Below, in pieces: positions 11,377 through 30,153 of a stretch of DNA of 64,000 bases. The DNA comes from Bacteroidales bacterium (GTDB lineage: Bacteria > Bacteroidota > Bacteroidia > Bacteroidales > VadinHA17). The position numbers and the translations under genes were made by a program. The DNA is taken from contig JALONV010000003.1 of NCBI GenBank assembly GCA_025454755.1, positions 3,158 through 67,157 on the forward strand, read 5' to 3'. The notes below the pieces were generated by a model, which was given only the letters and a program-made list of their open reading frames with translations, made no database searches and had not been told where the DNA came from. The first letter of the stretch is position 1; each line of letters opens with the position of its first letter.

Positions 11377-12561
11377 TTAAATATATTCAAACGTCACATT
11401 TTTCAGCCACTTCTCTTCCAGCAGCCTTGCAATTCGTTTTACAACAGTCCGTCTTATCTCCAGCTCGACGGGCAGGTTTGGATCCTGGTGGGCAATATTG
11501 ATCCTGGTACCTATAATGAAGTGGATCTCATCACTGTCCATGAGCATTTTGACGATCTTGTCAGCAGGACCTTTCCCAAGGCGCACACTATTATTATATG
11601 TCTTCAATATCTCATTCACCTTCTGAAGGGTCAGAATGCCCTCTGTAACCAGGTCGATACCTTCGAGGAAGCTTTCAGGCGGAAGCTCCGGATCTTCGAA
11701 GATAAGCTCGTCAACGATAGTCCTGTTCAGCTCCCTGGCAATAATGTCGGCAGTAGTACCTCCGCATAAGATCACTTTGCCTTCATAGCTTCTGACCTTT
11801 TCAGCCAGCTCCGTGTCCTTATCCTTTTCAAAGGGAGGACCGGTGCAGATCATCATCTTGCGGGGTTCGCGAAAGTAAATAATTGCGCAGCTTATATCGT
11901 CTTTTGCCTTGTACGCATCATACTTATGCGCCATGGTAACTATTTTACCGGCAAGCATGGATGCAGAAATTGATGCTTCACTCGAGACAAGCGCAGAGGC
12001 ATATGCTGCGATGTGGTCTCTTTCCCAGCCGAAAGGGAAGGATTCGCTTCCCATGCCGCTCTGAGCAACACCATCGGAGCAGAAAATTATCCTGTCTTCC
12101 TTCTCAGGCATAAATGTGCATGTTTTCAGGATCTTGCCTGAGTGTTTCCCTTTCTCCAGCACTACCTTTTTCCAGCCCGGATCAAATTCCTGTTTCCCCC
12201 TGAGGATTATAGCATGAGGATTGTCGTATTCCAGGATATTGGCCTTACCGCTGCTCTCAATATCGACGATCGTGAAGGTCGAGTAAGCTATTTTCCTTTC
12301 ACTGCACACAGGAAGGGTGTTCATTATTATTTCTGCAATACGGTCGACCTCTTTGTGCTCGCGGGCGAAATTCAGGGCCATGGTGGAGGTGAGGGTTGCC
12401 AGAATATTTGCTTTCACGCCATGCCCCATGCCATCGGAAAGAACTGCAATAACCCGGTCTTCTTCCTTTATATATTTATAAAGAAAGACGTCCCCGCATA
12501 TCCTTTCCTCATCATGGTTGCGCTGCTGACTGTTGACCTCTATATAGAAATCTTTGTTCAC
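11377..12561 (-). CDS. SpoIIE/PP2C Ser/Thr phosphatase, HfsC-like
   Basis: CGD, LSDGMGHG, STFTI, SDGV and DDIS metal-binding motifs. C-terminal CGGTTA/EGILTL domain as in hydrogenase-linked HfsC proteins. Overlaps the upstream sensory hydrogenase by 4 nt. Confidence 0.85.
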   Translation of the reverse strand: MNKDFYIEVNSQQRNHDEERICGDVFLYKYIKEEDRVIAVLSDGMGHGVKANILATLTSTMALNFAREHKEVDRIAEIIMNTLPVCSERKIAYSTFTIVDIESSGKANILEYDNPHAIILRGKQEFDPGWKKVVLEKGKHSGKILKTCTFMPEKEDRIIFCSDGVAQSGMGSESFPFGWERDHIAAYASALVSSEASISASMLAGKIVTMAHKYDAYKAKDDISCAIIYFREPRKMMICTGPPFEKDKDTELAEKVRSYEGKVILCGGTTADIIARELNRTIVDELIFEDPELPPESFLEGIDLVTEGILTLQKVNEILKTYNNSVRLGKGPADKIVKMLMDSDEIHFIIGTRINIAHQDPNLPVELEIRRTVVKRIARLLEEKWLKNVTFEYI

Positions 12562-14456
12562 TCCGTTTTTCCGGGCTTGTTATTTTGTTTGCTTATCTTT
12601 TTATAAGACTCAATGATTGAATTGAGCATCTGTTCTGTTTCAGATGCACCTTCACCCAGTAGGAATCCTATCTTCTGAACCATCTCCAGGTTTTTATCAA
12701 TTACCTCGCTGACCCGGTTGGTTACTTCTTCTCCCTGTACTTCAGGCGAATAGAGGTCACGTATAACAGCCCCGCACATTTTATTTTTCTTGATGGGGAA
12801 GATGGAAATGTTAAGCATCTTGTCCTCAAAATGAATATCCTTGCTGACAACAGGTTCATCCTCCTTGATTACAAAGGTGAACATGTTATAGACGTTAAAT
12901 GGAATGAGTGTCTTCAGGTCAGCTCCTGCAAGCCCCGGAATGACTTCAGAAATTGCGCGGGCATCTTCGCCGATAATATTTATGAAACTATGGTTTGAGT
13001 GAAGTATTCTCAGGTTATTGTCCACGATAACAACACCTGTTGGAAGCTTGTCGAGCATATTGTTCAGCATGTCGGAGGCACTTTGGGCCATGTCCTTTTC
13101 CCTGAGGGCCAGTTCCTCTGATTCTTTCAGGGCTTTCTTTGTTTCTGCCAGCTTCCTGTTTGTCTGTCTTAATGTTTCGATATATTCCTGTTTGTTCCGC
13201 AGGTTGAATGTATGACACATTTCAGGTACTGCCAGACCCTTGGCTACAGTCGATGCAAATTCGCGGCACGATAAATATCCGCATGCTCCGCAATTAAGCT
13301 CTTCCTCCGGATCATTCTTTCCGACTATTTTAAGCACTTCTTTTACAGCTTCTTCCGGAGGCTCAGGAATACGCTGGTCATTGGGATTGAAGGTCCTTGA
13401 GAAGTCTAGTTTCAGCCACTTATCCATGTTTTTCTGCCAGAGAACCTTATCGAGGGTGCTGATCCTTTTTTCGGTATAACGGCTGACAAGAGCCCTTCTC
13501 CTGAACATCTCCTTGTGATATTCCATGCCGGGCCCCAGCAAACAACCATGGCAGAAGAAAAGGTTGAAATGATGGTTGATGGTATCAATGAACTTGTCAA
13601 AATCATTTATTGCTTCAAGGATATCTTCCTTTCCGGATGCAGTTATTACCCTGCTCGAAACCATGTCGCGTTTGATGCCGCCTGCCTGGATAATACCTGC
13701 AGGAACAGGATAGAGAGCTCCCCAGTATCCGTATGGCGGATCGAAATCAGACATTTTTACATTCCTCTCCTGTATTTTGAATTCATCGAAAAGCTGACGA
13801 AGCTCTATGAAAGTCAGAACTCCGTCAATCAGCTTTCCCGATTCATACAGAAGAGCTTCATCCTTCGCATCGATGCATGGACCGATCTGAACAGTCGCGA
13901 TATCTTCGCCATATATCTTTTTGACAACCATGGCGGTGGCGATCATTGGCGACACCAGCGGAGCCAGGTTGGGAGTCATCTCTGGGTGGAATTTTTCAAT
14001 CAGCTTGACTATTGACGGGCAATTGGCTGTTATAAAATATTTGCCTTCGGCCTTGCTGAAAAGGTCGGCATATTTTGCGGCAATGAGGTCGACGCCAAAT
14101 GAGACCTCATGGACGCAATCAAAGCCCAGCTGTCGTACCATGGCTACAAACTTACGGTAGTCGGTAATGTCATCAAACTCCGACGCTATGGCAGGTTCGA
14201 TTAGTGCAACAGTTTTTTTCCCGGAGGCGAGCAATGTTTTAACTTCCTCCATTGAATCGCGGAATTCAATAGCGCGCGGGGAACAGTAGACATAACAGAG
14301 TCCGCAGCCGATACATCTTTCACTGAGAATTGTAGGGTGTTCTTTCTGAATTTTGACTTCTATGGCATTTACAGGGCATACCCTTACACACGAATATGAG
14401 TTTCTGCATCTGTCGTCATTAATGCGCAGAACAGGCTTAATGGTTTTCGCGCTCAT
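12558..14456 (-). CDS. Group C (sensory, HydS/HfsB-like) [FeFe]-hydrogenase-like protein with C-terminal FeS and PAS domains
   Basis: N-terminal ferredoxin motifs (CRNSYSCVRVCP, CIGCGLCYVYC). H-domain motifs TANCP, GPCIDAKDE and FCHGCLLGPG. NCGACGYLSC...C FeS domain, coiled coil, PAS-like LPTGVVIVD...N. Confidence 0.85.
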   Translation of the reverse strand: MSAKTIKPVLRINDDRCRNSYSCVRVCPVNAIEVKIQKEHPTILSERCIGCGLCYVYCSPRAIEFRDSMEEVKTLLASGKKTVALIEPAIASEFDDITDYRKFVAMVRQLGFDCVHEVSFGVDLIAAKYADLFSKAEGKYFITANCPSIVKLIEKFHPEMTPNLAPLVSPMIATAMVVKKIYGEDIATVQIGPCIDAKDEALLYESGKLIDGVLTFIELRQLFDEFKIQERNVKMSDFDPPYGYWGALYPVPAGIIQAGGIKRDMVSSRVITASGKEDILEAINDFDKFIDTINHHFNLFFCHGCLLGPGMEYHKEMFRRRALVSRYTEKRISTLDKVLWQKNMDKWLKLDFSRTFNPNDQRIPEPPEEAVKEVLKIVGKNDPEEELNCGACGYLSCREFASTVAKGLAVPEMCHTFNLRNKQEYIETLRQTNRKLAETKKALKESEELALREKDMAQSASDMLNNMLDKLPTGVVIVDNNLRILHSNHSFINIIGEDARAISEVIPGLAGADLKTLIPFNVYNMFTFVIKEDEPVVSKDIHFEDKMLNISIFPIKKNKMCGAVIRDLYSPEVQGEEVTNRVSEVIDKNLEMVQKIGFLLGEGASETEQMLNSIIESYKKISKQNNKPGKTE

Positions 14457-14472: not shown

Positions 14473-14730
14473 TTATTTAAATTTATCCAACTCCTTTACA
14501 AGTATGCTCTCTATTGTGGCAGTTGTTACACCTTCGATGACATGCCCGTTTATTGTCAGGTTGGGGCCGTTGCTGCAATGGCCCATGCATCGTGCACCTT
14601 TGAACATAACTTTATCTTCAAGATGATTTTTTTTCAGATAATCTTTTATGAACATGACTACCTCCTTGTTGCCTCTTGAAAAACAAGAACTTCCGAGACA
14701 TATATACATTTCAGTGCCCTGTGCCATCAT
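14473..14730 (-). CDS. Thioredoxin-like [2Fe-2S] ferredoxin, HfsA-like
   Basis: ICLGSSCFSRG...CMGHCSNGP. First gene of the leftward operon. Confidence 0.85.
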   Translation of the reverse strand: MMAQGTEMYICLGSSCFSRGNKEVVMFIKDYLKKNHLEDKVMFKGARCMGHCSNGPNLTINGHVIEGVTTATIESILVKELDKFK

Positions 14731-14951: not shown

Positions 14952-14986
14952 TTGTTATAAAAAAAACATTGTTATTTTAATAACAA
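14952..14986. promoter_or_regulatory. Tandem putative Rex operators (TTGTTAT-AAAA-AAAACAT at 14952-14969; perfect TTGTTAT-TTTA-ATAACAA at 14969-14986)
   Basis: 7-4-7 palindromes overlapping the expected -33 region of the rightward promoter. rex is encoded downstream on the same strand. Confidence 0.65.
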
Positions 14987-15022: not shown

Positions 15023-15493
15023 ATGAGTAAAGATATAGAGGTTATTATAAAGAAATACAAGCCGGGGAGGAGAGAGGAACTGATTCCGCTTCTCCAGGAG
15101 ATACAGGATGAACAGGGACACCTGTCGGAAGAAGCAATTGTCAGGGTGGGAAATTTTGTGGGTCTGAGCACTACTAAAATATATGGGCTGGCGACATTTT
15201 ACGACCAGTTCAAATTTGTCCCGTCAGGGAAGGTCTGCATAAAGATATGCAACGGCACTTCATGTTTCCTGAACGGCTCACAGGCTGTGATGAACAAAAT
15301 CAGGGAAGAAACAGGTCTGCCTGCCGGTCAAACCAGCAGAGACGGCAGTTTCAGCTACGAAATCGTAACCTGCATGGGCGGCTGCAACAATGGCCCCGTA
15401 ATTAGTGTCAACGGAGAATATAACACATATGTAAAGCCTGAACAGCTTTCTGATCTTATCAGGAGGCTGAAGTTCATAATTGAGAATGACTAA
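15023..15493 (+). CDS. NuoE/HydC/HndA-like [2Fe-2S] subunit
   Basis: LIPLLQEIQ, ATFY, CNGTSC...CMGGC. Confidence 0.9.
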   Translation: MSKDIEVIIKKYKPGRREELIPLLQEIQDEQGHLSEEAIVRVGNFVGLSTTKIYGLATFYDQFKFVPSGKVCIKICNGTSCFLNGSQAVMNKIREETGLPAGQTSRDGSFSYEIVTCMGGCNNGPVISVNGEYNTYVKPEQLSDLIRRLKFIIEND

Positions 15494-17428
15494 ATGGAAG
15501 ACCTTAGGAAATTTCTGATTGACAAGGTTCTGCTGTTTGAATCGGACACTCTGCTTCCTGAAACTGAAAAAGTTCTCAGGAAAATAAAGAGGGAGAAGGC
15601 CGACAGCGCAGTCATTTCTGTTTCTTCAGGCACGGCTGGCATAATTGCGGGATCAGAAAGAACCTGCATTGCCATTAAGTCGTATATTGATGAAAATGAG
15701 CCCGGCACTGAACTTGTAAGGGTCGGATGCACCGCTCCCAACAATTTTGAACCATTTGTCTGCGTTCAGCTTCCCGGAAAGAATAAACTGTTTTTCAGGA
15801 ATATCACGGAGGAAAAAGTAGAACCGCTCCTGAATGGCATTTTTCATAACGACATAAACAAGGACGACCTGGCAGGTCAGCAGGGAACAAAAGGATTTGA
15901 GCTCTGGCCAGGAATACCATTTCTTGAGGAACTGCCGTTTTTTGCCAGGCAGAAAAGAGTGGTGCTTAACAATTGCGGCTGCTATGATCCCGAAAATATT
16001 GAAGAGTATATAGCCCGCGGGGGATACAGGTCTTTTGTAAAAGCTATACGCCATTATACTTACGAGGAAGTCTGCAGCATCATTGAAACCAGCGGTCTCA
16101 GAGGCAGGAGCGGAGGAGGCTATATTACCGGGCTGAAATGGAAACAGGCTCTGAACACAACATCAGCATCGCGCTACCTTATTTGCAACGCAAAGGAGAG
16201 CGATCCCGGAGCATTTACAGACAGAACCATGCTTGAAAGCGATCCTCACCGCCTGGTCGAAGGAATGGCGATCGCTTCATATGCTATCGGTGCTTCAACG
16301 GCTATTGTGTTCTTCAGAAGAGGATCTGATCATGCATTGAGAAGGCTTCAGGAAGCAATCGACAATGCACGGGAGTTTGGTATTCTGGGACACAATATTT
16401 TTTCGAGCGGTTATAATCTCGACATAATAATCAGGAAAGAGCCGGGTGCTTTTGTCTGCGGAGAAGAGACCGCCCTGATCAGTACCCTGGAAGGAAAACG
16501 CGGCATGCCACAGCTTAAGCCTCCATATCCTACTGCATCAGGACTATTTGGAAAACCAACGGTTATTAACAACGTTGAGACGCTGATGAATGTTCCCCTC
16601 ATTATGCAGAACGGCCCTGAATGGTTTCGTACAATGGGAACGGAAAATAGTCCCGGCACAAAAGTGTTTGCTGTCGCCGGAAAAGGCCGCATGTCGGGAG
16701 TGGTAGAAGTAGAGATGGGAACCACATTAAGATCGATTATTGAAGATATTGCCGACGGAATAAAGGAAGGGAAAGAACTTAAAGCGGTACAGCTCGGAGG
16801 CGCTGCAGGTTCTTTTATCACTTCCGGAAATCTGGAAGTGCCTGTTGATTATGATGTTATGAAGGAGAAGGGCATTGCCATGGGAGCAGGCGGCTTTATA
16901 ATAATCGACGAGACTACCTGTATAGTGGATATCGTCAGATATTATATGGAATTCATCCGTGGCGAGAGTTGTGGCAAATGCATCCCCTGCCGTGAAGGAA
17001 CCGGCCGTATGCTTGAGATCCTTGACAGTGTAATAAAAAAACCGGCCAGCGAAGACTCGGGTACAACCCTCGAACGGTTCAAAGGTGTAATGCAGCTTGA
17101 GACCATAGCCTCGGTGATGAAGGATACTTCACTCTGCGGACTTGGACAAACTGCTCCTAATCCTTTCCTGAGCGCGCTTGAAAATTTCAGGGAAGAATTT
17201 GAGGAGCATATCTTCGACCGTAGATGCAGGGCAAATGTGTGCAGAGGTCTGAGAACCTTTTCAATAGATGTTGATAAGTGCACCGGCTGTACAGCCTGCG
17301 CATCGAAATGCCCTGTGAATGCCATTTATGGCACAAGGCTTCAGCCTTTCTTCATTGTAGAGGAGAAATGCACAGGATGTGGAATATGCTATGATATTTG
17401 CAAGTTCAGCGCAATAAAGGTAAAATAA
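15494..17428 (+). CDS. NuoF/HydB/HndC-like flavoprotein subunit with divergent FMN/NAD motifs
   Basis: LRGRSGGG, CNAKESDPGAFTDR, FVCGEETAL, NNVET, SCGKCIPC..LCGLG, HIFDRRCRANVC, and a C-terminal 2x[4Fe-4S] domain. Confidence 0.88.
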   Translation: MEDLRKFLIDKVLLFESDTLLPETEKVLRKIKREKADSAVISVSSGTAGIIAGSERTCIAIKSYIDENEPGTELVRVGCTAPNNFEPFVCVQLPGKNKLFFRNITEEKVEPLLNGIFHNDINKDDLAGQQGTKGFELWPGIPFLEELPFFARQKRVVLNNCGCYDPENIEEYIARGGYRSFVKAIRHYTYEEVCSIIETSGLRGRSGGGYITGLKWKQALNTTSASRYLICNAKESDPGAFTDRTMLESDPHRLVEGMAIASYAIGASTAIVFFRRGSDHALRRLQEAIDNAREFGILGHNIFSSGYNLDIIIRKEPGAFVCGEETALISTLEGKRGMPQLKPPYPTASGLFGKPTVINNVETLMNVPLIMQNGPEWFRTMGTENSPGTKVFAVAGKGRMSGVVEVEMGTTLRSIIEDIADGIKEGKELKAVQLGGAAGSFITSGNLEVPVDYDVMKEKGIAMGAGGFIIIDETTCIVDIVRYYMEFIRGESCGKCIPCREGTGRMLEILDSVIKKPASEDSGTTLERFKGVMQLETIASVMKDTSLCGLGQTAPNPFLSALENFREEFEEHIFDRRCRANVCRGLRTFSIDVDKCTGCTACASKCPVNAIYGTRLQPFFIVEEKCTGCGICYDICKFSAIKVK

Positions 17429-17433
17429 TCGTT

Positions 17434-19155
17434 ATGCTTTTTACGATCCAGGTAAATAATAAAAAGATTAAGGCTGAAAAAGGAGAAACGATCCTTTCGG
17501 CACTAAACCGTAATGGCATAATAATTCCCACTCTCTGCCGCATGAAGGAATTCACTCCGACGGGAGCCTGCCGGATGTGCGTCGTGGAGGTTGAAGGCCG
17601 CGACAGGCTGGTAACCGCGTGCTCACAGCCTGTTGAGGAATGGATGAAGATCAAAACACATTCCCCCAGGGTGATTACCGCAAGAAAAACCATCGTGGAG
17701 CTCCTTCTTTCAAATCACCCCGACGATTGCCTTTATTGCGACAAAAACCTGAACTGTGAACTGCAGCGTCTTTCCGAAGAGCTTAATATCAGGGAAAGAC
17801 GTATGCGCGCAAAGAAAATCCGTCCCAGGCTCGACCAGTCAAGTCCAGCTATTGTCAGAGAACTTTCGAAGTGCATCCTCTGCGGAAGATGCGTCAGGGT
17901 TTGTGAGGAAATAATTACTTCAACATCACTTGATTTTTTAAATAAAGGAAGTCAGACACATGTCGGCCCTGCTATGGACCGCGACTTCAATTTTTCAAGC
18001 TGCATCCACTGCGGGCAGTGCGTTCTGGTTTGTCCGACAGGCGCACTTCATGAGAAACATAATATAAATGAGGTACAGGAATACCTTAACAATCCTGAAT
18101 TGCTGAAAGTTATACAGTATTCGCCTCTCGTAGCATCCGGTATAGCCGAAGAGCTCGGGATAAAATATAACAGGGAATTTGACAGGATACTGAATTCAAT
18201 CCTTCGTAAAATAGGTTTCGAAAAAATATTTACCACCGGTACCGGCACTGATATCTGCATCACTGAAGTTACCGCACAGCTGAAGGAAGAAATTGAAAGA
18301 AAGTCCAAGACACCGCTATATATTTCTGCATGTCCTGCCTGGGTAAAATATGCTGAGCAATTCATGCCTGAGATCCTTCCCCTGCTGTCAACGGTGAAAT
18401 CACCCCAGCAGATCACAGGTATCCTTATAAAGACGCTGGTGGCGGAGCAGGCAGATGTCAGGCCGGAGAAGATTTACTCGGTTTCTGCAACACCATGCAT
18501 GGCAATGAAGTTCGAAGCAAGGAGAGACGGCATGATGCGGAAGGGGATCAGCGATGTCGATTCAGTGATGACCGTCCGGGAACTGGCAAGATTGATAAGG
18601 CTCTATGGCATAGATGTAACAAACATCGAACCTGAACCTGTTGATGAACCGATGTCGGGACTGACTTCTGCGGCAGCCCTGGCAGAAGTTTCCGGAGGAC
18701 TTGCAGAAGCAGTGATAAGATCCCTGTGGTTCAGTATCAATAATAATGAAGCTGACAGGCAGTTATTCAAGAAATTGCGTTCTGGCGGATCATTCAGGGA
18801 AGCCTCCTTCAGAATAGGTGAAACAGAGATCAGCGTTGCAGTTGTCGATGGTCTTATTGGTCTTGAGAAACTGAAGAATTCACAGGCATCAGGAAAAAAA
18901 TATGATCTCGTGGAGGTGATGACCTGCCAGGGAGGATGCGTTAATGGAGCTGGACTTCCCTATAGCTCAGTTAAAGATGAAAAGAAAAGCAGGGCAAAAA
19001 TGATCTATCACGCTGACGAGACAGATGCACTTAACCTGCCATGTAAATCGCCGGTACTGTTGAACCTGTACGATAAACTTATTAAAGAGAATAAGGAGAT
19101 TGGAGACAGGAAGATATTTTTTACACATTTTGAGAAGAGGAATGTTCTTTTGTAG
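17434..19155 (+). CDS. HydA/HndD-like [FeFe]-hydrogenase homologue with degenerate H-cluster pocket
   Basis: Accessory clusters intact (IPTLC..GACRMC..TAC; HPDDCLYC..C; CILCGRCVRVC; CIHCGQCVLVCP). H-domain motifs are ISACPAW, TPCMAMKFE and EVMTCQGGCVNGAG. Confidence 0.85.
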   Translation: MLFTIQVNNKKIKAEKGETILSALNRNGIIIPTLCRMKEFTPTGACRMCVVEVEGRDRLVTACSQPVEEWMKIKTHSPRVITARKTIVELLLSNHPDDCLYCDKNLNCELQRLSEELNIRERRMRAKKIRPRLDQSSPAIVRELSKCILCGRCVRVCEEIITSTSLDFLNKGSQTHVGPAMDRDFNFSSCIHCGQCVLVCPTGALHEKHNINEVQEYLNNPELLKVIQYSPLVASGIAEELGIKYNREFDRILNSILRKIGFEKIFTTGTGTDICITEVTAQLKEEIERKSKTPLYISACPAWVKYAEQFMPEILPLLSTVKSPQQITGILIKTLVAEQADVRPEKIYSVSATPCMAMKFEARRDGMMRKGISDVDSVMTVRELARLIRLYGIDVTNIEPEPVDEPMSGLTSAAALAEVSGGLAEAVIRSLWFSINNNEADRQLFKKLRSGGSFREASFRIGETEISVAVVDGLIGLEKLKNSQASGKKYDLVEVMTCQGGCVNGAGLPYSSVKDEKKSRAKMIYHADETDALNLPCKSPVLLNLYDKLIKENKEIGDRKIFFTHFEKRNVLL

Positions 19156-19268: not shown

Positions 19269-21230
19269 ATGCTCGTCTATACCATTAAAGAACTCTGCCG
19301 TACTTGCTACACCTGTGTCAGGGAGTGCCCTGCCAAGGCGATCCGTATTGTCGGCGGCCAGGCAGAGGTAATTACTGACCGGTGCATCGCCTGCGGGAAT
19401 TGTACTAAAGTGTGCAGTCAGGGTGCAAAAGTATTCCTGAATACCACCGACAGGGTGCTGAAGCTTCTGGGCGACCAGCCAAAAGTTGCTGCCATGATTG
19501 CACCTAGTTTTCCGGCAGAGTTTTCTGATATCCCTGATCACCGCATGCTTATTGGTATGATCAGATCAATTGGTTTTGAATATGTTACAGAAGTTTCATT
19601 CGGCGCCGATATTGTCGCTGACAAGTACAAAAAACTTGTAAATGAAAGCAATGAATATTATATTACTTCAGACTGTCCTTCAATAGTAAATTATATCAAG
19701 TATTATCACCCTGCCCTGGCCGACAGCCTTGCTCCGATTGTTTCACCGATGGTTGCCATGAGCAGGATTGTACATAAAAAATATGGTGAGGATACAAAGA
19801 TTGTCTTCATAGGTCCGTGTGTTGCAAAAAAAGCAGAAAGCAGTGAGATTGATGAAGCCATTACTTTCACCGAGCTAAGGGATCTTTTTGCCCAGCTTGG
19901 CATTTCTCCTGCAAACAGCACTCCTTCGGATTTTGATCCGCCGTTTGGCGGACGCGGCGCTATTTTTCCTGTAACGAGAGGATTGCTGCAGACCGCAAGT
20001 ATAAATGATGATGCCATAACCGGCAACATTATTGCTGCTGAAGGGAGGATAGGTTTCCAGGAAGCGCTGAAGGAATTTGAGGCAGGACTTATTAAAACCC
20101 AGCATGTAGAACTGCTCTGCTGCGAAGGATGCATTATGGGACCGGGTCTTTCAAAGAATGGAAAACAGTATAACAGGAGAGCCCTGGTGAGCAGTTATGC
20201 AAATAGGAAGATGAATGAGATTGACCAGAATGGATGGAAATCGGCATTCGATGAGTTTTCAGATCTCGACCTTTCTGTAAGGCATAAAGCAGAAGATCAC
20301 AGGCTTTTAATGCCTGATGAGGCAGATGTCACGGATGTCCTTATTTCGATGGGCAAAAAGACCAGGAAAGACCAGCTCGATTGCGGAGCATGCGGTTATG
20401 AGAGCTGTGTTGAACATGCCATAGCGATTAAAAAGGGATTGGCTGAAGTGGAGATGTGCCTTCCCTATACTATTGAGAAGCTTCACAAATCGGTTACTGA
20501 CCTCGCGCTTTCCAATGAGAAACTCAGCTCAATGAGGCAGGCGCTTAAGCAGTCTGAGAAACTTGCTCACATGGGTCAGCTGTCGGCAGGTATCGCTCAT
20601 GAACTCAATAATCCGCTGGGCGTTGTGATAATGTACAGCAATATTCTGCTTGATGAATGCAAACCTGACGATCCCGTACGGGAGGACTTAAAGCTGGTTG
20701 TGGAACAGGCCGGAAGGTGCAAGAAGATCGTGGCCGGACTTCTGAATTTTGCAAGGAAAAACCAGGTAAACCATCAGATGGTCAACATCGGTGAACTGAT
20801 CAGTCATAGCCTTGAAAGTATCATTGTACCGGCGAATGTAAAGGTCTCAGTTGTAAATAAAACTACCAATCCCGATGCAATGCTCGACTCAGAACAGATG
20901 ATGCAGGTTCTGACTAACCTTATCAAGAATGCCATCGATGCAATGCCGGGGGGAGGCGCTGTAAACATTCTCCTGGAAGATACGCTCAGCCATGTCAGCA
21001 TTACCGTTGGCGACACAGGTTCTGGTATCAGGGAAGAGAACAGATCAAAGGTTTTCGAACCATTCTTTACAACTAAAGGACTCGGCCATGGCACAGGCCT
21101 GGGACTTGCCACTGCCTACGGGATTGTGAAGATGCACAAGGGGCAGATAACTGTCGAATCCAACACCGATCCGGCAAAAGGGCCGACAGGTACAAGCTTT
21201 AAAATTGTATTACCAAGGAGGAAAGAATAA
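19269..21230 (+). CDS. Sensory [FeFe]-hydrogenase-like domain fused to a histidine kinase
   Basis: 2x[4Fe-4S] N-terminus; [27 protein letters not shown]; [10 protein letters not shown] FeS domain; His[11 protein letters not shown]; HATPase NAIDA, DTGSGI, FFTTK, GTGLGL. Start set at ATG 19269 because the upstream TTG extension is repeat DNA. Confidence 0.9.
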
Positions 21231-21626
21231 ATGAAGAAAAGCGATTATACGATACTTGTTGCCGATGATGACCCTGACTATCTCTTTCAGACTGTATTCA
21301 GTCTTGAGAAAGCAGGTTACAAGACTGTTGCTGTGGAGAGCCAGGCAGAAGCTGAATCGGTAATATCTAAATTCAGACCCGATCTTGCTATTTTTGACCT
21401 TATGATGGAGAGCGACGACAGCGGGTTCATTCTCTGCTATAAGATAAAGAAGAAATATCCGGATGTGCCGGTGATCCTTGCTACTGCAGTTTCAAGGGAG
21501 ACCGGAATGTCATTCAGTATCGATTCTGAAAAGGACAAATCGTGGATCAGAGCTGACAAATACCTTGAAAAAGGGATCAGGGCTGAACAGCTCGACCAGG
21601 AGGTTATGAAACTTTTAAAGATATGA
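21231..21626 (+). CDS. Single-domain response regulator (receiver)
   Basis: VADDD, FDLMM (phospho-Asp), LATA, LEK. No output domain. Confidence 0.88.
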   Translation: MKKSDYTILVADDDPDYLFQTVFSLEKAGYKTVAVESQAEAESVISKFRPDLAIFDLMMESDDSGFILCYKIKKKYPDVPVILATAVSRETGMSFSIDSEKDKSWIRADKYLEKGIRAEQLDQEVMKLLKI

Positions 21627-21627
21627 C

Positions 21628-22764
21628 ATGGCAGTCTTGAAAATACTTGTTATCGATGATGAACCCGGGATACGGTCGGGAGTGACACGTATCCTGAGAG
21701 ATTTTCATGTGACATATCCATTCATGGATGAGGATTATACTTTCGAAGTTCTTCAGGCTCCCACCGGTGAAGATGGAATAAGTATTATTGAAAACGACAA
21801 ACCCGACATTATTCTCCTCGACAACAAACTTCCGGGAATCCAGGGTGTGGATGTACTTGAGTATGTCCGCGAGAGAAAATACGACATTGTTGTCGCAATG
21901 ATCACATCCTATGCATCGCTTGACGTTGCCATTAGGGCAACACGTGACGGTGCAACCGATTTTATTCCCAAACCATTCACTCCACAGGAACTCAAGTCGA
22001 GCATTGAGAATATTTCCAAACAGCTATATCTCAGGAAGGTAACCGACAAGCTGAAGACGGAGGGAAAAAAGGTCAGATACCAGTTTCTGTCAGTCCTTTC
22101 TCATGAACTTAAAGCTCCTCTGAATGCTATCGAAGGTTATCTCAGAATGATGCAGGAGAAACAGGCCGGCGACAGGATAGATGATTATGCTGATCATATC
22201 GACAGGTCGCTTCAGCGGATACAGGGAATGAGGAACCTCATCATGGACCTGCTGGACTTTACCAAGATCAGGCTTGAAAGGAGGGAAGAAAAGATCCAGG
22301 AGGTTGATCTTGCCGAAGTGGCAAAAGGCGCAATTGTGACGGTTCAGCCTTATGCTATTCAGATGGACGTTACCATAAACCTGGATGTCAGAAGCGATTC
22401 GATGATCATGGCTGATCCGGAAGATATGGAGATCATCTTCAACAATCTGATCTCCAATGCAGTTAAATACAACAAGGTCGGGGGTAAGGCAGATATAACT
22501 ATCGACAGTACGGAAAGTGAAGTGCTGCTGGTCTTCACCGACACAGGCATAGGTATATCTGATGCTGACAGGGAGAATCTTTTCAAGGATTTCATGAGGG
22601 TGAAGAATGAAAGGACAAAAAATATATCAGGCAGCGGCCTGGGGTTGAGTATTGTGAGGAAAGTAATTGAACTGTATCATGGTACAGTAAAGGTTGACAG
22701 CAAACCTGACCTTGGAACCGTTTTTACTGTAAGATTGCCAAAGAAACCACCAACAATAACCTGA
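21628..22764 (+). CDS. Receiver-histidine kinase hybrid (no sensor domain)
   Basis: VIDDE, LLDNKLP and KPF receiver motifs; SHELKAPL; NAVKY, DTGIGI, GSGLGL. Confidence 0.9.
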   Translation: MAVLKILVIDDEPGIRSGVTRILRDFHVTYPFMDEDYTFEVLQAPTGEDGISIIENDKPDIILLDNKLPGIQGVDVLEYVRERKYDIVVAMITSYASLDVAIRATRDGATDFIPKPFTPQELKSSIENISKQLYLRKVTDKLKTEGKKVRYQFLSVLSHELKAPLNAIEGYLRMMQEKQAGDRIDDYADHIDRSLQRIQGMRNLIMDLLDFTKIRLERREEKIQEVDLAEVAKGAIVTVQPYAIQMDVTINLDVRSDSMIMADPEDMEIIFNNLISNAVKYNKVGGKADITIDSTESEVLLVFTDTGIGISDADRENLFKDFMRVKNERTKNISGSGLGLSIVRKVIELYHGTVKVDSKPDLGTVFTVRLPKKPPTIT

Positions 22765-22770
22765 TAAATT

Positions 22771-23394
22771 ATGAAACTGCCAGGAAAAACTGTAGAAAGA
22801 CTGAGTGAGTACAGAAGAACTCTTCTGGAATGTCTTCTCGAAAAGAAAAACTTCATTTTTTCACACGACCTTGCAGCCCGTCTGCATATTACGGCTGTCC
22901 AGGTAAGACGCGACCTGATGCTGATCGGCTATTCCTCGGTACAGCGCAAGGGCTATGATGTGAAAGAGCTCATTGAAAAAATAGGGACCATTATTGATTC
23001 TGAAGAGAGCCTTAATGTCGCCATAATCGGAATAGGGAACCTTGGAAGAGCTGTCGCAGGTTATTTCAAGGGAAAGAGATCCAAGCTTAATCTTGTTGCA
23101 TCATTCGATACAGATCCGCAAAAGATCAACAAGGTGGTATCCGGGGTAAAGTGTTATCACCATAACGAGATGGAACAGGTAATAAGAGACCTGAATATAA
23201 GGATAGCAATAATTACTGTTCCTCCAGACTATGCAAAGGAGATAGCCGAGGAGGCAGTCCGCTTCGGAATAAAAGGCATACTGAACTTTACCACGATCCC
23301 ACTCAATGTACCCTCATGGGTGTTCCTTGAAGAATATGACATGATCACTTCCATTGAAAAAGTAGCCTATTTTGTCAAGGAGAATACTATTTAG
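22771..23394 (+). CDS. rex: Redox-sensing transcriptional repressor Rex
   Basis: P.KTVERLSEY, QVRRDL, GY winged helix; GIGNLGRA Rossmann fold; GILNFT. Confidence 0.92.
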   Translation: MKLPGKTVERLSEYRRTLLECLLEKKNFIFSHDLAARLHITAVQVRRDLMLIGYSSVQRKGYDVKELIEKIGTIIDSEESLNVAIIGIGNLGRAVAGYFKGKRSKLNLVASFDTDPQKINKVVSGVKCYHHNEMEQVIRDLNIRIAIITVPPDYAKEIAEEAVRFGIKGILNFTTIPLNVPSWVFLEEYDMITSIEKVAYFVKENTI

Positions 23395-23399
23395 TGTTC

Positions 23400-24320
23400 A
23401 TGAATAACATGAAGATATTCAGGGGCTTTGAGCAGGCAAGAGGAATCAGGAATCCTGTGGTTACAACGGGTTCATTTGACGGTGTCCACATCGGGCATAA
23501 AACTATTCTGAACCGGCTTAAGCTCCTGGCAGAAAAGCACAACGGAGAATCTGTTCTGATAACTTTCGATCCCCATCCGCGGAAGGTGCTTTATCCCGAA
23601 ACTGCAGGCAAAAGCCTGAAACTTATCAATTCACAGGAGGAGAAACTCGAGCTTCTGAGAAAAGCCGGACTTGATAACCTGATCATAGTAGAATTTACCA
23701 GAGAATTCTCAAAAACCACTAGTGAAGAGTTTGTCAGAAATTATCTGCATGGCATCCTGAAGGCAAAGGTTGTGGTTGCAGGATTCAATCATCATTTTGG
23801 TTTCAATCAGGAAGGCGATTACAGGCAGTTGTGGGGGTGGCGGGAGAAGTACAACTTTGAAGCCGAAGAGATACCTGAACAGGAAGTACAGCACGAAACA
23901 GTAAGCTCTACCAATATCCGTAAGGCAATAAGCGAGGGTTATATTCAAAGAGCAAATGCGTATCTCGATCATTATTATATGATCATGGGTATTCCTGAAA
24001 AGCATGCTGTAATTTTTGATCTTCCTTTCCTTAAAATACCGCTGACAGAGGAATGCAAACTTCTGCCGGCAACCGGAATTTATGCAGTATCGGTAATCTC
24101 GGGCCAGGCAAATACAAAAGGGATGGTTGTCATCAATGAATCACATGAGAAGAAGCCGGAAATACTTCTGCATATTTTTGAAGAAGCAGATATGTTCCAG
24201 GGAAAAACTTCGACTATACTTTTCCATAAGATGATACATGGGTCAGTCTATCTGTCAGAAGCAAAGACGGCAGAGCGGATTATCAATGCAAAAAGCGAGA
24301 TAACGGATCTTATATACTGA
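23400..24320 (+). CDS. RibF-like FAD synthetase (FMN adenylyltransferase) with degenerate riboflavin-kinase domain
   Basis: GSFDGVHIGH, TFDPHP, GFNHHFG and VSSTNIR are intact. The C-terminal domain lacks GRxLGFPTAN and the catalytic E-x-H. Confidence 0.8.
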   Translation: MNNMKIFRGFEQARGIRNPVVTTGSFDGVHIGHKTILNRLKLLAEKHNGESVLITFDPHPRKVLYPETAGKSLKLINSQEEKLELLRKAGLDNLIIVEFTREFSKTTSEEFVRNYLHGILKAKVVVAGFNHHFGFNQEGDYRQLWGWREKYNFEAEEIPEQEVQHETVSSTNIRKAISEGYIQRANAYLDHYYMIMGIPEKHAVIFDLPFLKIPLTEECKLLPATGIYAVSVISGQANTKGMVVINESHEKKPEILLHIFEEADMFQGKTSTILFHKMIHGSVYLSEAKTAERIINAKSEITDLIY

Positions 24321-24352
24321 TAAGAATCATCTTCCGGCAGCCATCTTTTCAG

Positions 24353-24360
24353 TATCTTTG
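24353..24360 (+). promoter_or_regulatory. -7 promoter element (TATCTTTG) upstream of hydG
   Basis: Exact TAnnTTTG 24 nt before the ATG. Confidence 0.55.
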
Positions 24361-24384
24361 CAACCTGTTTAATATAAATATTTC

Positions 24385-25809
24385 ATGCGCTTTTCACCCG
24401 AAAAACTAAAGATCCCTGATCAGAGAATGAAACCATTCATTGATCCTGAAGAAATATGGGATCTAATAAATAATACCAAACCCGACAAGCAGAGGGTGAG
24501 AGAAGTGATTGCAAAATCTCTTGATAAAAACCGCCTTACACTTGAAGAAACTGCTGTGCTCGTGAATTCAATGGGGACCGGTCTTGAAGAAGAAATAAAA
24601 CAAGGAGCCAGGGAGCTTAAGGAAAAAGTATACGGAAACAGGATTGTTCTTTTTGCACCTCTTTATGTCGGTAACAGATGTACCAATAATTGCCAGTATT
24701 GCGGATTCAGGGCTTCCAACAAAGATGCTGTAAGGAAGACACTTACTGATGAGGAGATTATAAAGGAAGTTGAAGCCCTTGAGGATAACGGACAGAAGAG
24801 GCTGATCCTGGTTTATGGGGAGCATCCTGAGTATTCACCCGAATATATTGCGCATACTGTGAAGCTGGTGTATGGCATTAAAAAAGGACATGGTGAAATA
24901 AGGAGAGTTAACATAAATGCCGCACCTCTCACGATCGAAGGGTTCAGAACAGTTGGAGAGGCCGGCATCGGAACATACCAGGTATTCCAGGAAACCTATC
25001 ATCCGGAAGCATATAAATGGTATCACCCCAGCGGTAAAAAGAAGGATTACGAATGGAGAGTTACTGCGCTCGACAGAGCACAGGAGGCAGGTATTGATGA
25101 TGTTGGAATTGGCGCGCTCTTTGGTTTGTACGACTGGCGGTTTGAAGTTCTCGGACTGGTGCGGCACACAAATCATCTTGAAGCCTGCTATAACGTAGGG
25201 CCCCATACCATATCATTCCCGAGGATTAAAGATGCTCTCAGCCTCAATATAGACGGTACATACCAGACAAGTGATGATGAATTCAAAAAACTTGTGCCTA
25301 TTCTGAGACTGGCAGTCCCGTATACAGGGATGATACTGACTGCAAGGGAAGCGCCTGAAGTAAGGAAAGAAGTGATGCAGTATGGCGTATCACAAATAGA
25401 TGGCGGCACCAAGCTGGAGATTGGATCTTACTCAGATTCACAGAATGAGGTACAGAATCTCAATCGTGAACAGTTTAAAATTAATGACCCGCGTTCGCTT
25501 GCAGAAGTAATCGAGGAATTGCTTGTAAATGATTATATACCCTCATTTTGCACATCCTGCTACAGGATGGGAAGAACCGGTGAGCACTTCATGGAATTTT
25601 CGGTACCCGGATTCATCAAGCGTTTCTGTACACCCAATGCAATCCTTACCCTGTCGGAATATATATGCGATTATGCAACCGATAGCGTTGCTGAAAAGGG
25701 CTGGAAAGTGATCGAGAAGAACCTTAAAAAGCTCGAACCCGGGGTGGAACAGACAACACGAGAGAAAATAGAACGGATTAGAAATGGAGAAAGAGACCTC
25801 TATTTTTAA
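24385..25809 (+). CDS. hydG: [FeFe]-hydrogenase H-cluster radical SAM maturase HydG
   Basis: FAPLY, CTNNCQYC, FQETYH, GPHTISFPR, C-terminal FCTSCYR...FC auxiliary-cluster motif, GERDLYF end. Confidence 0.95.
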   Translation: MRFSPEKLKIPDQRMKPFIDPEEIWDLINNTKPDKQRVREVIAKSLDKNRLTLEETAVLVNSMGTGLEEEIKQGARELKEKVYGNRIVLFAPLYVGNRCTNNCQYCGFRASNKDAVRKTLTDEEIIKEVEALEDNGQKRLILVYGEHPEYSPEYIAHTVKLVYGIKKGHGEIRRVNINAAPLTIEGFRTVGEAGIGTYQVFQETYHPEAYKWYHPSGKKKDYEWRVTALDRAQEAGIDDVGIGALFGLYDWRFEVLGLVRHTNHLEACYNVGPHTISFPRIKDALSLNIDGTYQTSDDEFKKLVPILRLAVPYTGMILTAREAPEVRKEVMQYGVSQIDGGTKLEIGSYSDSQNEVQNLNREQFKINDPRSLAEVIEELLVNDYIPSFCTSCYRMGRTGEHFMEFSVPGFIKRFCTPNAILTLSEYICDYATDSVAEKGWKVIEKNLKKLEPGVEQTTREKIERIRNGERDLYF

Positions 25810-25854
25810 AGGCTTCAGGCATCAGGCTTCAGGCATCAGGCTTCAGGCGACAGG
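25810..25854. repeat. Alternating heptamer array AGGCTTC/AGGCATC (6 units), with a short inverted copy at about 25868-25880
   Basis: Read directly right after the hydG stop. Confidence 0.9.
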
Positions 25855-25915
25855 AAGAAAAGACAATAAGCCCGACGCCTTTTCCTAGTAATAATACTTT
25901 TTATAAAATACTCTT

Positions 25916-26440
25916 ATGATTAAAGTTTTAGGAATCAAGATTGTGGACAGAATAAAGGAAGCAGGACTTACTCAGGAAATCCTGTCCCGTCATTCGGGTG
26001 TTATAACGACCCGCCTTGGTTTTCATGAGGTTACAGAAAGCATCTGCAGCCGTGAAGCATATATTATACTTCATCTCAAAGATGATGAGGCAGAATCGGA
26101 TAAACTTAAAAAAGAGCTTGAACCACTGGGTGGAATAGAAATCAGGGAAATGGTCTTTTCAGGAAATGGAAAAAATGAGTATGTGAAGGAAAATGACGGC
26201 ATGATAGAGATCCTTGGCCTACTTCTTGAAAAGAGATACGAAGTGATACTTTCAGTTCAGAAACTTCTTACATCCTATGGCTGCTACATCCGCACGCGCC
26301 TGGGTGTAAATGAGACGTTCTTTGGCGAACCTGCAGGACTCATTATTCTTGAACTATGCGGCGATAAGGAACAGAGGGAACTCCTTGAAAAAGACCTTGT
26401 TGCACTGACAGGAGTCCATGTGAGGAAAATGATCTTCTGA
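25916..26440 (+). CDS. Tandem two-domain TM1266-like (iron-only hydrogenase system regulator, ACT-like) protein
   Basis: Two similar halves: VLGIKIVDR..QEILS.H...ITTRLG and ILGLLLEKR..VQKLLTSYGCYIRTRLG. Adjacent to hydG. Confidence 0.65.
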   Translation: MIKVLGIKIVDRIKEAGLTQEILSRHSGVITTRLGFHEVTESICSREAYIILHLKDDEAESDKLKKELEPLGGIEIREMVFSGNGKNEYVKENDGMIEILGLLLEKRYEVILSVQKLLTSYGCYIRTRLGVNETFFGEPAGLIILELCGDKEQRELLEKDLVALTGVHVRKMIF

Positions 26441-29037: not shown

Positions 29038-30153
29038 TTAAGATGTACTGCCTTTGAGCCCCTTCACCCTCGCGCCTTTACGCCTTATTTCATAATGTTT
29101 TGAATCTCCCCATTCACCGTAAACTACCTCAGCATCTGCCAGTGAAACCCTGGCTTCCAGGCAACTCTGGCAATCTTCAGCTGAGTCGTCGGTACAAGGT
29201 TTGTTATTGTACAATTTATAGCTGTCGCGGTATTTACCCGGCGTAATGTTGGGCATCAGGATGTTAGCACCTATTTTAACCGCTTTCTCTCTTCCAATGG
29301 GATCTATTGCCTGGAGGGCAGTTGCTGCAACAATGTTTATATCCTTCATTATGATCCTGAGGATGGCTATCATCTTAAGCGTAAGGTCGAATCTTTCATT
29401 CAGGGCCAGGAGCTTGTCCGCATGTTCAATAAGCGGTGTGTCGGCATGTTCAATATAAGGACCCATGCCGCACATATCGATATCTAACTCCTGAAAGAAT
29501 AGCAGATCGCCGGCCAGATCATCCAGCGTCTGGAACGGCAAACCTATCATTACGCCTGTTCCAGTCTGATAACCGATATCCTGAAGGCTTTTAAGGCAAT
29601 CAAGTCTTCGCTGGAAATCATGCTTTTTGTTATTCGGATGTATCTTGCTGTAGAGCTCCTTGTTTGTCGATTCAACCCGAAGAAGGTAGCGGTGTGCTCC
29701 TGCATCGAACCATGCTTTGTACACTTCAGGCTTCTGTTCTCCGACCGACAGTGTTATTCCAAGTTTCCCGCCGGAAAGCTCCTTAATATTATTGAGTAAC
29801 TTTATTACTCGTTTTGTAAAAGCCGGACTTTCAATTTCACCTGATTGAAGAGCCAGGGAGCCATAGTTGTTGTCGAATGCAAATTTCGCAGCGGCAAGGA
29901 TCTCATCATCGGAGAGGTTATAGCGTTTAAGGTTTTTATTTCCCCTTCTTATGCCGCAATAGAGACAATCCTTGCTGCAAACATTTGAAAACTCAATCAA
30001 TCCCCTGAACCAGACTTTTCTGCCTATATATTTCTCTTTTGTTTCTGCGGACTTACTGAAAAGAAGGCTTCTCTCTTCACCCTTAGCCTGAAGCAGTCGT
30101 ATGATTTCCTCCTTATTGAAGGACTCCTTTTTAAGTATATCTTTTACATCCAT
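29038..30153 (-). CDS. hydE: [FeFe]-hydrogenase H-cluster radical SAM maturase HydE
   Basis: RGLIEFSNVCSKDCLYCGIR, GVMIGLPFQT, GMGPYI.H.DTPL, GANILMPNITP, YxLY. Confidence 0.92.
   Translation of the reverse strand: MDVKDILKKESFNKEEIIRLLQAKGEERSLLFSKSAETKEKYIGRKVWFRGLIEFSNVCSKDCLYCGIRRGNKNLKRYNLSDDEILAAAKFAFDNNYGSLALQSGEIESPAFTKRVIKLLNNIKELSGGKLGITLSVGEQKPEVYKAWFDAGAHRYLLRVESTNKELYSKIHPNNKKHDFQRRLDCLKSLQDIGYQTGTGVMIGLPFQTLDDLAGDLLFFQELDIDMCGMGPYIEHADTPLIEHADKLLALNERFDLTLKMIAILRIIMKDINIVAATALQAIDPIGREKAVKIGANILMPNITPGKYRDSYKLYNNKPCTDDSAEDCQSCLEARVSLADAEVVYGEWGDSKHYEIRRKGARVKGLKGSTS

Follow-up and report, generated by a model that had tools for sequence, protein, structure and literature searches.

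The window analysed here is a stretch of 64,000 nucleotides of contig JALONV010000003.1, from the metagenome-assembled genome (MAG) of a Bacteroidales bacterium (assembly GCA_025454755.1). It carries a hydrogenase locus in which hydC, hydB, hydA*, a histidine kinase gene with a hydrogenase domain, a response regulator, a receiver-kinase hybrid, Rex, ribF and hydG follow one another, with hydE further on, and from which a [2Fe-2S] protein, a HydS-like protein and a SpoIIE phosphatase are divergently transcribed. The present work concerns the product of hydA*, HydA*, a relative of bifurcating hydrogenase subunits that keeps its iron-sulfur (Fe-S) ligands and has lost residues of the proton path and of the diiron pocket. 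Residue numbers are those of the C. pasteurianum hydrogenase CpI, read through HMMER alignments with CpI variant chains. The features of HydA* itself are as follows.

17434..19155, + strand: HydA*, predicted pseudo-hydrogenase of 573 amino acids, with [2Fe-2S], His-ligated [4Fe-4S] and two [4Fe-4S] sites and a four-Cys H-domain with an altered pocket (HMMER, AlphaFold, structure match)
18328..18333, + strand: Ala299 (proton-relay Cys lost) then Cys300 (cluster ligand kept); 299 is never Cys and 300 always Cys in 77 of 77 close orthologues
18490..18507, + strand: Thr353-Pro-Cys355-Met-Ala-Met358 (M353T, K358M); M358 in 77 of 77 close orthologues and 118 of 119 further homologues
18682..18687, + strand: Ala417-Glu418 (F417A, G418E); E418 in 76 of 77 and 119 of 119

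The open reading frame (ORF) at 17434-19155 on the forward strand translates into 573 residues without a stop, as a sequence-only reading of this DNA had claimed when it described a full-length gene free of frameshifts. From residue 227 to about 477, the alignment with CpI is ungapped and HydA* numbering equals CpI numbering, so that substitutions can be read directly. The AlphaFold model of HydA* (mean predicted local distance difference test score of 89.2) matches solved hydrogenase folds with template modelling (TM) scores of 0.91-0.93, reaching 0.92 for T. kivui HydA and 0.91 for CpI, which supports the register of the alignment; the profile and structural alignments that the same reading had proposed as a check thus uphold it. 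The open ORF, the ungapped alignment and the TM score of 0.91 together rule out a frameshift or a misalignment. By sequence, the closest solved relatives of HydA* are the HydA subunits of bifurcating enzymes (E 1e-127), and its scores lie under the curated NCBIfam cut-offs for group A (349.8 against 405.95 for TIGR02512, and 577.6 against 765 for NF040763). HydA* has neither a PF04060 nor an output domain and ends in -VLL.

All the substitutions listed by the sequence-only reading are present in the alignment, namely E279V, E282Q, R286E, C299A, M353T, K358M and the loss of F417 (F417A), and five that it did not list come in addition (A230S, S232L, A272T, T275C and G418E). The proton path C299-E279-S319-E282 therefore reads A299, V279 and Q282, with S319 as the sole residue kept, and the diiron-pocket residues K358, M353 and F417 are replaced by M358, T353 and A417, next to E418. 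The four cysteines of the [4Fe-4S]H cluster (C300, C355, C498 and C502) and the 17 accessory-cluster ligands (16 Cys and H95) are intact, and this second half of the earlier claim extends to 77 of 77 orthologues.

These orthologues come from a scan of GTDB genomes that gave 286 relatives, of which the best 80 loci, all in Bacteroidota MAGs and mostly in Bacteroidales, were analysed; 77 encode a full-length HydA*, one being split (L044) and two partial (L066 and L080). A clade sharing the substitutions, which the sequence-only reading had called for, thus exists: among the 77, residue 358 is always Met, residue 299 is Ala, Val or Thr and never Cys, residue 279 is never Glu and usually Ile or Leu, residue 417 is never Phe, Glu418 occurs in 76 and Cys275 in 70, and every Fe-S ligand is invariant. 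The losses of K358, C299, E279 and F417 are accordingly clade characters, but R286E is private to this genome, since position 286 is Arg in 33 orthologues, Lys in 30 and Glu in none. In 119 further homologues, residue 358 is Met in 118 and Leu in one, and residue 418 is Glu in all. Gene order is nearly fixed in the 80 loci, with HydB adjacent in 78, the kinase beside HydA in 75 and Rex in 69. The median ratio of non-synonymous to synonymous substitution (dN/dS) is 0.015 for the Fe-S wire and 0.07 for the H-domain, as estimated from unsaturated pairs alone (89 and 75 of 2,926 pairs, dS being near saturation); HydA* is under strongly purifying selection.

A survey of the order covered 151 genomes, 105 of which gave a match, and 60 of the top-scoring loci were fetched. 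Five are other hydrogenases and 55 are orthologues of the hydCBA-kinase-regulator operon, of which 25 have an essentially canonical HydA (four with G418A only) and 30 an eroded one. E279 is kept in 6 of the 30 eroded against 25 of the 25 intact forms, F417 likewise in 6 of 30 against 25 of 25, C299 in 16 of 30 against 25 of 25 and K358 in 20 of 30 against 25 of 25, and the four H-cluster cysteines are present in 30 of 30 eroded orthologues. Pairwise identity in the H-domain is 43% among eroded and 66% among intact forms, compared with 62% and 68% in the wire. The replacements vary by lineage (C299 to Ser, Asp, Asn, Val or Ala; K358 to Arg, Ala, Gly or Met; G418 to Ala, Ser, Glu, Asn or Asp), and S230 and K244 are the only new H-domain residues common to at least 75% of the 30 eroded orthologues; C275 and E418 are not common to this wider clade, E418 occurring in 1 of 30. 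One shared, rewired active site is thus unsupported beyond the close clade. Because the replacements differ between lineages, they fit relaxed constraint better than a single rewired site; of the two, we prefer the view that constraint relaxed once the enzyme had been displaced.

A quick tree was built from the HydA wire and HydB with the trait columns removed (65 rows; L083, L090 and L130 were omitted, having no full HydB). The operon orthologues form one clade, with the intact forms basal, and all eroded forms, including that of the window, form one derived clade; both have a support of 100 in the SH-like approximate likelihood ratio test. Substitution G236S in HydB marks the eroded clade (28 of 29 against 0 of 24 intact). 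On this tree, at least 9 changes are needed at K358 and at least 12 at C299, and the approximately unbiased test rejects a single clade of K358-less rows (p-AU 0.0034, for a group defined after the tree was seen), so that pocket residues were lost repeatedly. Of eight orthologues added later, six are eroded (G061, G096, G018, G102, G076 and the partial G011) and two intact (G048 and G008), and a ninth, the partial G066, is intact where covered. HydA* of the window is thereby shown to derive from an intact HydCBA linked to the kinase, whose canonical form persists in other Bacteroidales. The decay is not private to a single MAG, since the changes are fixed in close orthologues and eroded forms are found across the order.

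HydB residues of the flavin mononucleotide (FMN) and NAD sites are kept in 27-29 of 29 eroded operons, the kinase stands at 53-59% identity where HydA is down to 25-43%, and the most eroded HydA, at 25% identity, still has its four cysteines and a well-conserved kinase. That most eroded operon belongs to G076, a genome of 1.9 Mb (L176:6297-14029), in which HydB is at 32% identity, HydC was not detected, and kinase, regulators and Rex are still 46-56% identical. Two further loci are peculiar: G060 (L090) has a HydA* with no HydB, HydC or kinase within the 14 kb read, and in G110 the kinase after HydA (L082:10016-12019) has HfsB-like motifs, has no lysine and is apparently a hybrid of both sensors of the locus. 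The HydA P0133 from Thermoguttaceae (Planctomycetota) carries C299A, K358R and F417C and is possibly an independent eroded hydrogenase outside Bacteroidota; the 4,122-residue protein P0121 has seven matches to the hydrogenase H-domain, six of them at a 444-residue period, which is either a tandem array or a gene-calling artefact.

That HydA* is a functionless relic in slow decay is highly improbable. The long eroded branches, the heavy erosion of lineages such as G076, the split HydA in one of 80 close loci (L044) and the genomes with hfs-like genes but no operon nearby would agree with it, but dN/dS values of 0.015-0.07, a full-length ORF in 77 of 80 loci, invariant Fe-S ligands and a conserved palindrome upstream do not. 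The dN/dS values already largely refute it.

What the altered residues imply for catalysis can be assessed from other hydrogenases. K358 presumably corresponds to the lysine numbered K228 in the study cited next. This lysine is described as extremely conserved, and its variants are reported to fail in H-cluster assembly (PMC9516953). In CpI, C299A, E279A and E279Q leave less than 1% of the activity and E282Q about 8%, whereas R286A retains 30-90% and C299D is active (PMC6226526). The sensory enzymes TmHydS and TamHydS have neither the proton path nor C299 nor M353, and yet they bind the cofactor and show slow H2 turnover (PMC8163306), so that loss of the path is not in itself proof of inactivity. 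The statement of the sequence-only reading that its listed residues are needed for proton transfer and diiron binding consequently goes too far. With R286A active and HydS active without the path, K358M is the discriminating change; combined with G418E, it means that this lineage has likely lost the diiron site. On these residues, HydA* has very probably lost useful catalysis, its H2 turnover being negligible, and it probably binds no [2Fe]H at all.

An alternative is that the altered pocket still binds the diiron cofactor and that HydA* works as a very slow, sensor-type hydrogenase, passing electrons to NAD+ or to the kinase. C299A and M353T do mirror the active TmHydS and TamHydS (PMC8163306), and the distal cyanide contact proved dispensable for catalysis in a semi-synthetic enzyme (PMC9516953). 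In addition, S319, P324, Q325 and M497 are retained, which means that the pocket is altered and not wholly removed; the close clade shows near-fixation of E418, M358 and C275; the locus includes hydG and hydE; and many eroded relatives have K358. However, lysine variants are reported to block H-cluster assembly (PMC9516953), the lineage-differing replacements fit relaxed constraint, and the locus already has a sensor that keeps the lysine. We regard this slow-sensor activity as unlikely.

The pseudo-hydrogenase interpretation is consistent with the remainder of the genome, which is 97.8% complete and encodes five H-domain proteins, three of them in this locus. The other two, the HydA paralogues C66 and C47, have all ten scored catalytic residues; C66, which belongs to a hydDBAC operon, shows bifurcating-type signatures and C47 non-bifurcating-type ones, by the criteria of PMC7311640. 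With two canonical paralogues, the cell does not need the HydA* copy for H2 production. HydA of the C66 type (at least 73% identity) occurs in 30 of 31 eroded-operon and 0 of 26 intact-operon genomes, the exception, G107, having another intact HydA (L130); in 12 of the 26 intact-operon genomes, the operon HydA is the sole match. All 26 second copies that were fetched are canonical at ten of ten sites. The SpoIIE phosphatase shows a similar distribution (29 of 30 eroded-operon and 0 of 25 intact-operon genomes). Across the order, 55 of the 151 genomes have it, including cases where it neighbours a canonical hydrogenase or where the stretch read holds no pseudo-operon, so it tracks the lineage that bears hydDBAC and is no proof of partnership; HfsB and HfsC were rejected as dedicated partners of HydA* on this ground.

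Upstream of hydC lies an 18-bp palindrome, searched for with a pattern that combines this site with what we take to be the Rex consensus. The pattern has 20 perfect matches genome-wide, and the palindrome has a counterpart upstream of C47 at one mismatch from the pattern. A perfect copy stands in 51 of 70 close loci, where shuffled sequence would give 0.04, and a copy within one mismatch in 20 of 28 eroded and 5 of 23 intact operons. As separate observations on C47, its HydA (G000:C47:32400-34181) carries a Ser in place of the C300 ligand (TSCSP), a replacement shared by 7 of 7 C47-type copies from other genomes, and a second Rex lies close to this third HydA (G000:C47:14983-25581). The genes around that Rex presumably encode [NiFe]-hydrogenase maturation proteins and subunits of a membrane-bound hydrogenase, judging by their motifs.

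The remaining features of the locus are listed below.

11377..12561, - strand: SpoIIE-type phosphatase, HfsC-like (domain annotation; genome distribution)
12558..14456, - strand: HfsB/HydS-like protein, K358 equivalent absent (Lys in 0 of 20 distant orthologues)
14473..14730, - strand: small thioredoxin-like [2Fe-2S] protein, which we take to be HfsA-like (domain annotation)
14969..14986, no strand: Rex-like palindrome of 18 bp upstream of hydC; an identical copy lies upstream of the hydDBAC operon (G000:C66:39153)
15023..15493, + strand: HydC, NuoE-like, four [2Fe-2S] cysteines present (profile and domain annotation)
15494..17428, + strand: HydB*, NuoF-like; FMN/NAD-site residues and B1-B4 ligands kept
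19269..21230, + strand: histidine kinase with a hydrogenase domain, group C1-like; K358 equivalent K187 kept, Asp at the C299 position (D135, C136, K187 and K188 invariant in 34 of 34)
21231..21626, + strand: single-domain response regulator (domain annotation)
21628..22764, + strand: receiver-histidine kinase hybrid (domain annotation)
22771..23394, + strand: Rex, NADH-sensing repressor (above curated cut-offs)
24385..25809, + strand: HydG maturase (TIGR03955, above cut-off)
29038..30153, - strand: HydE maturase (TIGR03956, above cut-off)

The stretch that separates Rex from the maturase region (23394-26440) encodes a doubled TM1266-like protein and an FAD synthetase whose flavokinase domain is weak. 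The third maturase gene of the source MAG, hydF, spans two contig ends (the start of G000:C59 and the end of G000:C102) with an overlap of 99 bases; its reading frame shifts about two-thirds along, which may be an assembly error and, if real, would affect all [FeFe] enzymes of the strain. The HfsB/HydS-like protein at 12558-14456 is itself a probable pseudo-hydrogenase, having lost the lysine in 20 of 20 distant orthologues and H-cluster cysteines as well in several.

HydB* of the window clade differs from the beta subunits of bifurcating enzymes. The bifurcation signatures of these subunits are an A/E-x-M motif, a Phe and GGPSG (PMC7311640), and the BfuB core has five clusters, B1-B5 (names after PMC9304861). 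In HydB*, two of the three N-terminal B5 cysteines are gone and D234K, G236S and M242T are found; A240 and F320 are of the bifurcating type (the Phe position being placed by our alignment and not by the number of PMC7311640), Met is replaced by Thr242 and GGPSG reads GGAAG. The five-cluster core is therefore incomplete in the window's HydB*; B5 cysteines are present in most of the distant eroded operons.

These data bear on a metabolic alternative, in which the complex is a diaphorase passing electrons from NADH to ferredoxin or another acceptor; HydA* would then be a purely structural subunit or hand electrons on to some third substrate, and would take no part in signalling. The conserved FMN/NAD-site residues and B1-B4 ligands of HydB would suit such an enzyme, about half of the Bfu-family enzymes are non-hydrogenases (PMC9304861), the Rex-like site is common to the operon and the metabolic hydrogenases, and in four eroded-operon genomes no kinase was found. 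However, the B5 cysteines, the AFM methionine and the GGPSG motif missing from HydB here are features tied to bifurcation, no gene of a third-substrate subunit was identified beside the operon among the annotated ORFs of the window, and a structural role leaves the invariance of four terminal cysteines at 25% identity unexplained. A diaphorase without a signalling function has, in our view, a low probability.

Altogether, these findings lead to an interpretation to which we give close to an even chance: HydA* would be a pseudo-hydrogenase that, displaced from catalysis, forms the Fe-S terminus of a HydCBA complex reducible by NAD(H), and this complex would feed the co-encoded kinase cascade. 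The part of it that was proposed earlier, a pseudo-hydrogenase under selection, is borne out by the conserved clade, the low dN/dS, the two canonical paralogues, the tracking of erosion with a second, bifurcating-type hydrogenase and the reported lack of H-cluster assembly in K358 variants (PMC9516953). The signalling role of the wire toward the kinase is advanced more tentatively. In mechanistic terms, HydB* would still bind FMN and NAD(H), electrons would equilibrate along B1-A1-A2-A3 to a bare [4Fe-4S]H, and the redox state of this cluster would set or reset the neighbouring hydrogenase-domain kinase and possibly HfsB as well. Setting or resetting the redox state of the kinase would be the simplest use of a retained path from NAD(H) to [4Fe-4S]H, and synteny makes electron transfer between HydA* and the adjacent kinase plausible. 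Since no other protein of the locus retains the anchoring lysine, the kinase itself is the likely H2 sensor; C299D is active in CpI and Asp stands at this position in 34 of 34 kinases, which makes it the likeliest sensor of the locus. Control of the Rex type would match the amount of wire to that of the working hydrogenases.

Several points weigh against this interpretation, besides the activity of the path-less HydS enzymes and the residues that the pocket retains. K358 is kept in 20 of 30 eroded forms and is Arg in 6, so that the clade as a whole cannot have lost the diiron site. The tree was quickly built and leaves 22 of 62 forks open, and its K358-less group was defined after the tree was seen. 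The associations of hydDBAC, phosphatase and palindrome with erosion reflect one origin in the gene tree, not 31 independent events. Finally, the kinase was not found in 4 of the 31 eroded-operon genomes (G033, G107, G040 and G148); it also accompanies intact operons and, in G038 (L177), occurs without HydCBA in the 15.6 kb read, so that it is independent of the pseudo form.

The consequences reach beyond this locus. Database entries name such proteins 'iron-only hydrogenase group A' or 'HndD', and with hydrogenase names given to probable pseudo-enzymes, studies of H2 cycling in peat, sediments and digesters likely credit Bacteroidales with too much H2-producing capacity. The operon family forms a natural gradient between intact enzyme and probable pseudo-enzyme, on which the need of pocket residues for diiron loading becomes testable, and it bears on the repurposing of the hydrogenase fold, as is assumed to have happened in Nar1. 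The same family supplies a concrete candidate electron partner for hydrogenase-kinases of group C1, a group listed with an undetermined role (PMC5037454). A literature search, with subscription journals thinly covered, found no account of an inactive HydABC or of this decay in Bacteroidales. The operon layout, however, is already in print (PMC11406978).

In that paper, BfuABC with a kinase-type BfuT ('Sub-type V') is described as bfuABC plus a hydrogenase-kinase, with a second sensor gene upstream of bfuC in three Bacteroidota; by description, this matches the layout found here. The two-sensor operons are treated there as bifurcating hydrogenases and the role of two sensors is called unclear; the sections available to us make no mention of active-site decay (PMC11406978). 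Tenuifilum, Perlabentimonas and Williamwhitmania are the two-sensor Bacteroidales that it names. By its features, HydA* is not a member of catalytic group A3, of group C/D or of Nar1; its function, if any, would be that of the half of a Bfu enzyme that conducts electrons. The bifurcating group A3/Bfu HydABC complexes of T. kivui (8a6t), A. woodii (7q4v) and T. maritima (7p5h) have the same M3 architecture, hydCBA order and cluster ligands, share the NuoE- and NuoF-like partners of the operon and are represented by its intact orthologues; in contrast to them, HydA* has no proton relay, K358 or F417, and HydB of the window lineage has no complete set of B5 ligands and neither the AFM nor the GGPSG signature.

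TmHydS and TamHydS of group C/D resemble HydA* in that C299 is replaced, M353 is changed to a small or hydroxyl residue and the canonical proton path is missing. They differ in their M2e/M2f architecture, whose C-terminus bears a Cx2Cx4Cx16C cluster to which M2f adds PAS, and in being cofactor-binding and active (PMC8163306). HydA*, by comparison, derives from group A, has lost K358 and has no C-terminal cluster domain, PF04060 being found instead in two neighbours. The divergent [2Fe-2S]/HydS-like/SpoIIE triad resembles hfsABC of the hfsABCD operon of Thermoanaerobacterium saccharolyticum, an assignment made from domain content and what we assume of that operon; here, there is no hfsD and the triad faces the HydCBA pseudo-enzyme operon. 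Deletion of hfsB has a regulatory phenotype (PMC5707799).

The sequence-only reading had likened HydA* to Nar1. Nar1/IOP1/CIAO3 likewise combines the hydrogenase fold and the [4Fe-4S]H ligands with the absence of a [2Fe]H function, which for HydA* is predicted, but it has two [4Fe-4S] sites and a C-terminal Trp and acts in cytosolic Fe-S assembly, and it is reported to have no [2Fe]H because the maturases are absent (PMC12621388). HydA* has ligands for five clusters, NuoE and NuoF partners and a -VLL end; its host has maturases, with hydG and hydE in the window and hydF in pieces, and the pocket itself is changed. The likeness of fold thus holds and the Nar1-like repurposing is an analogy only; HydA* nests among canonical Bacteroidales HydA, in a tree that held no Nar1 sequence. 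A function of Nar1 proper, in which a labile Fe-S cluster in the emptied cavity is carried onward or lost as a means of O2 sensing, is very improbable. Yeast Nar1 is proposed to bind an O2-labile [2Fe-2S] in the same cavity (PMC12621388), and C275 (70/77) and E418 (76/77) may be new near-pocket ligands in the close clade; but these residues are not shared by the wider eroded clade, where E418 occurs once in 30, and HydA* is encoded with HydB and HydC in most loci, in no visible context of cluster clients. We would rather suggest, as a possible though doubtful elaboration of the displaced-hydrogenase interpretation, that a cofactor-free HydCBA acts as an NAD(H) wire and signals straight to the hydrogenase-kinase through its bare terminal [4Fe-4S], comparing H2 with the NADH pool; this would be a bacterial parallel, still in progress, to the way Nar1 arose, different Bacteroidales families representing the intact, the half-decayed and the fully decayed stage.

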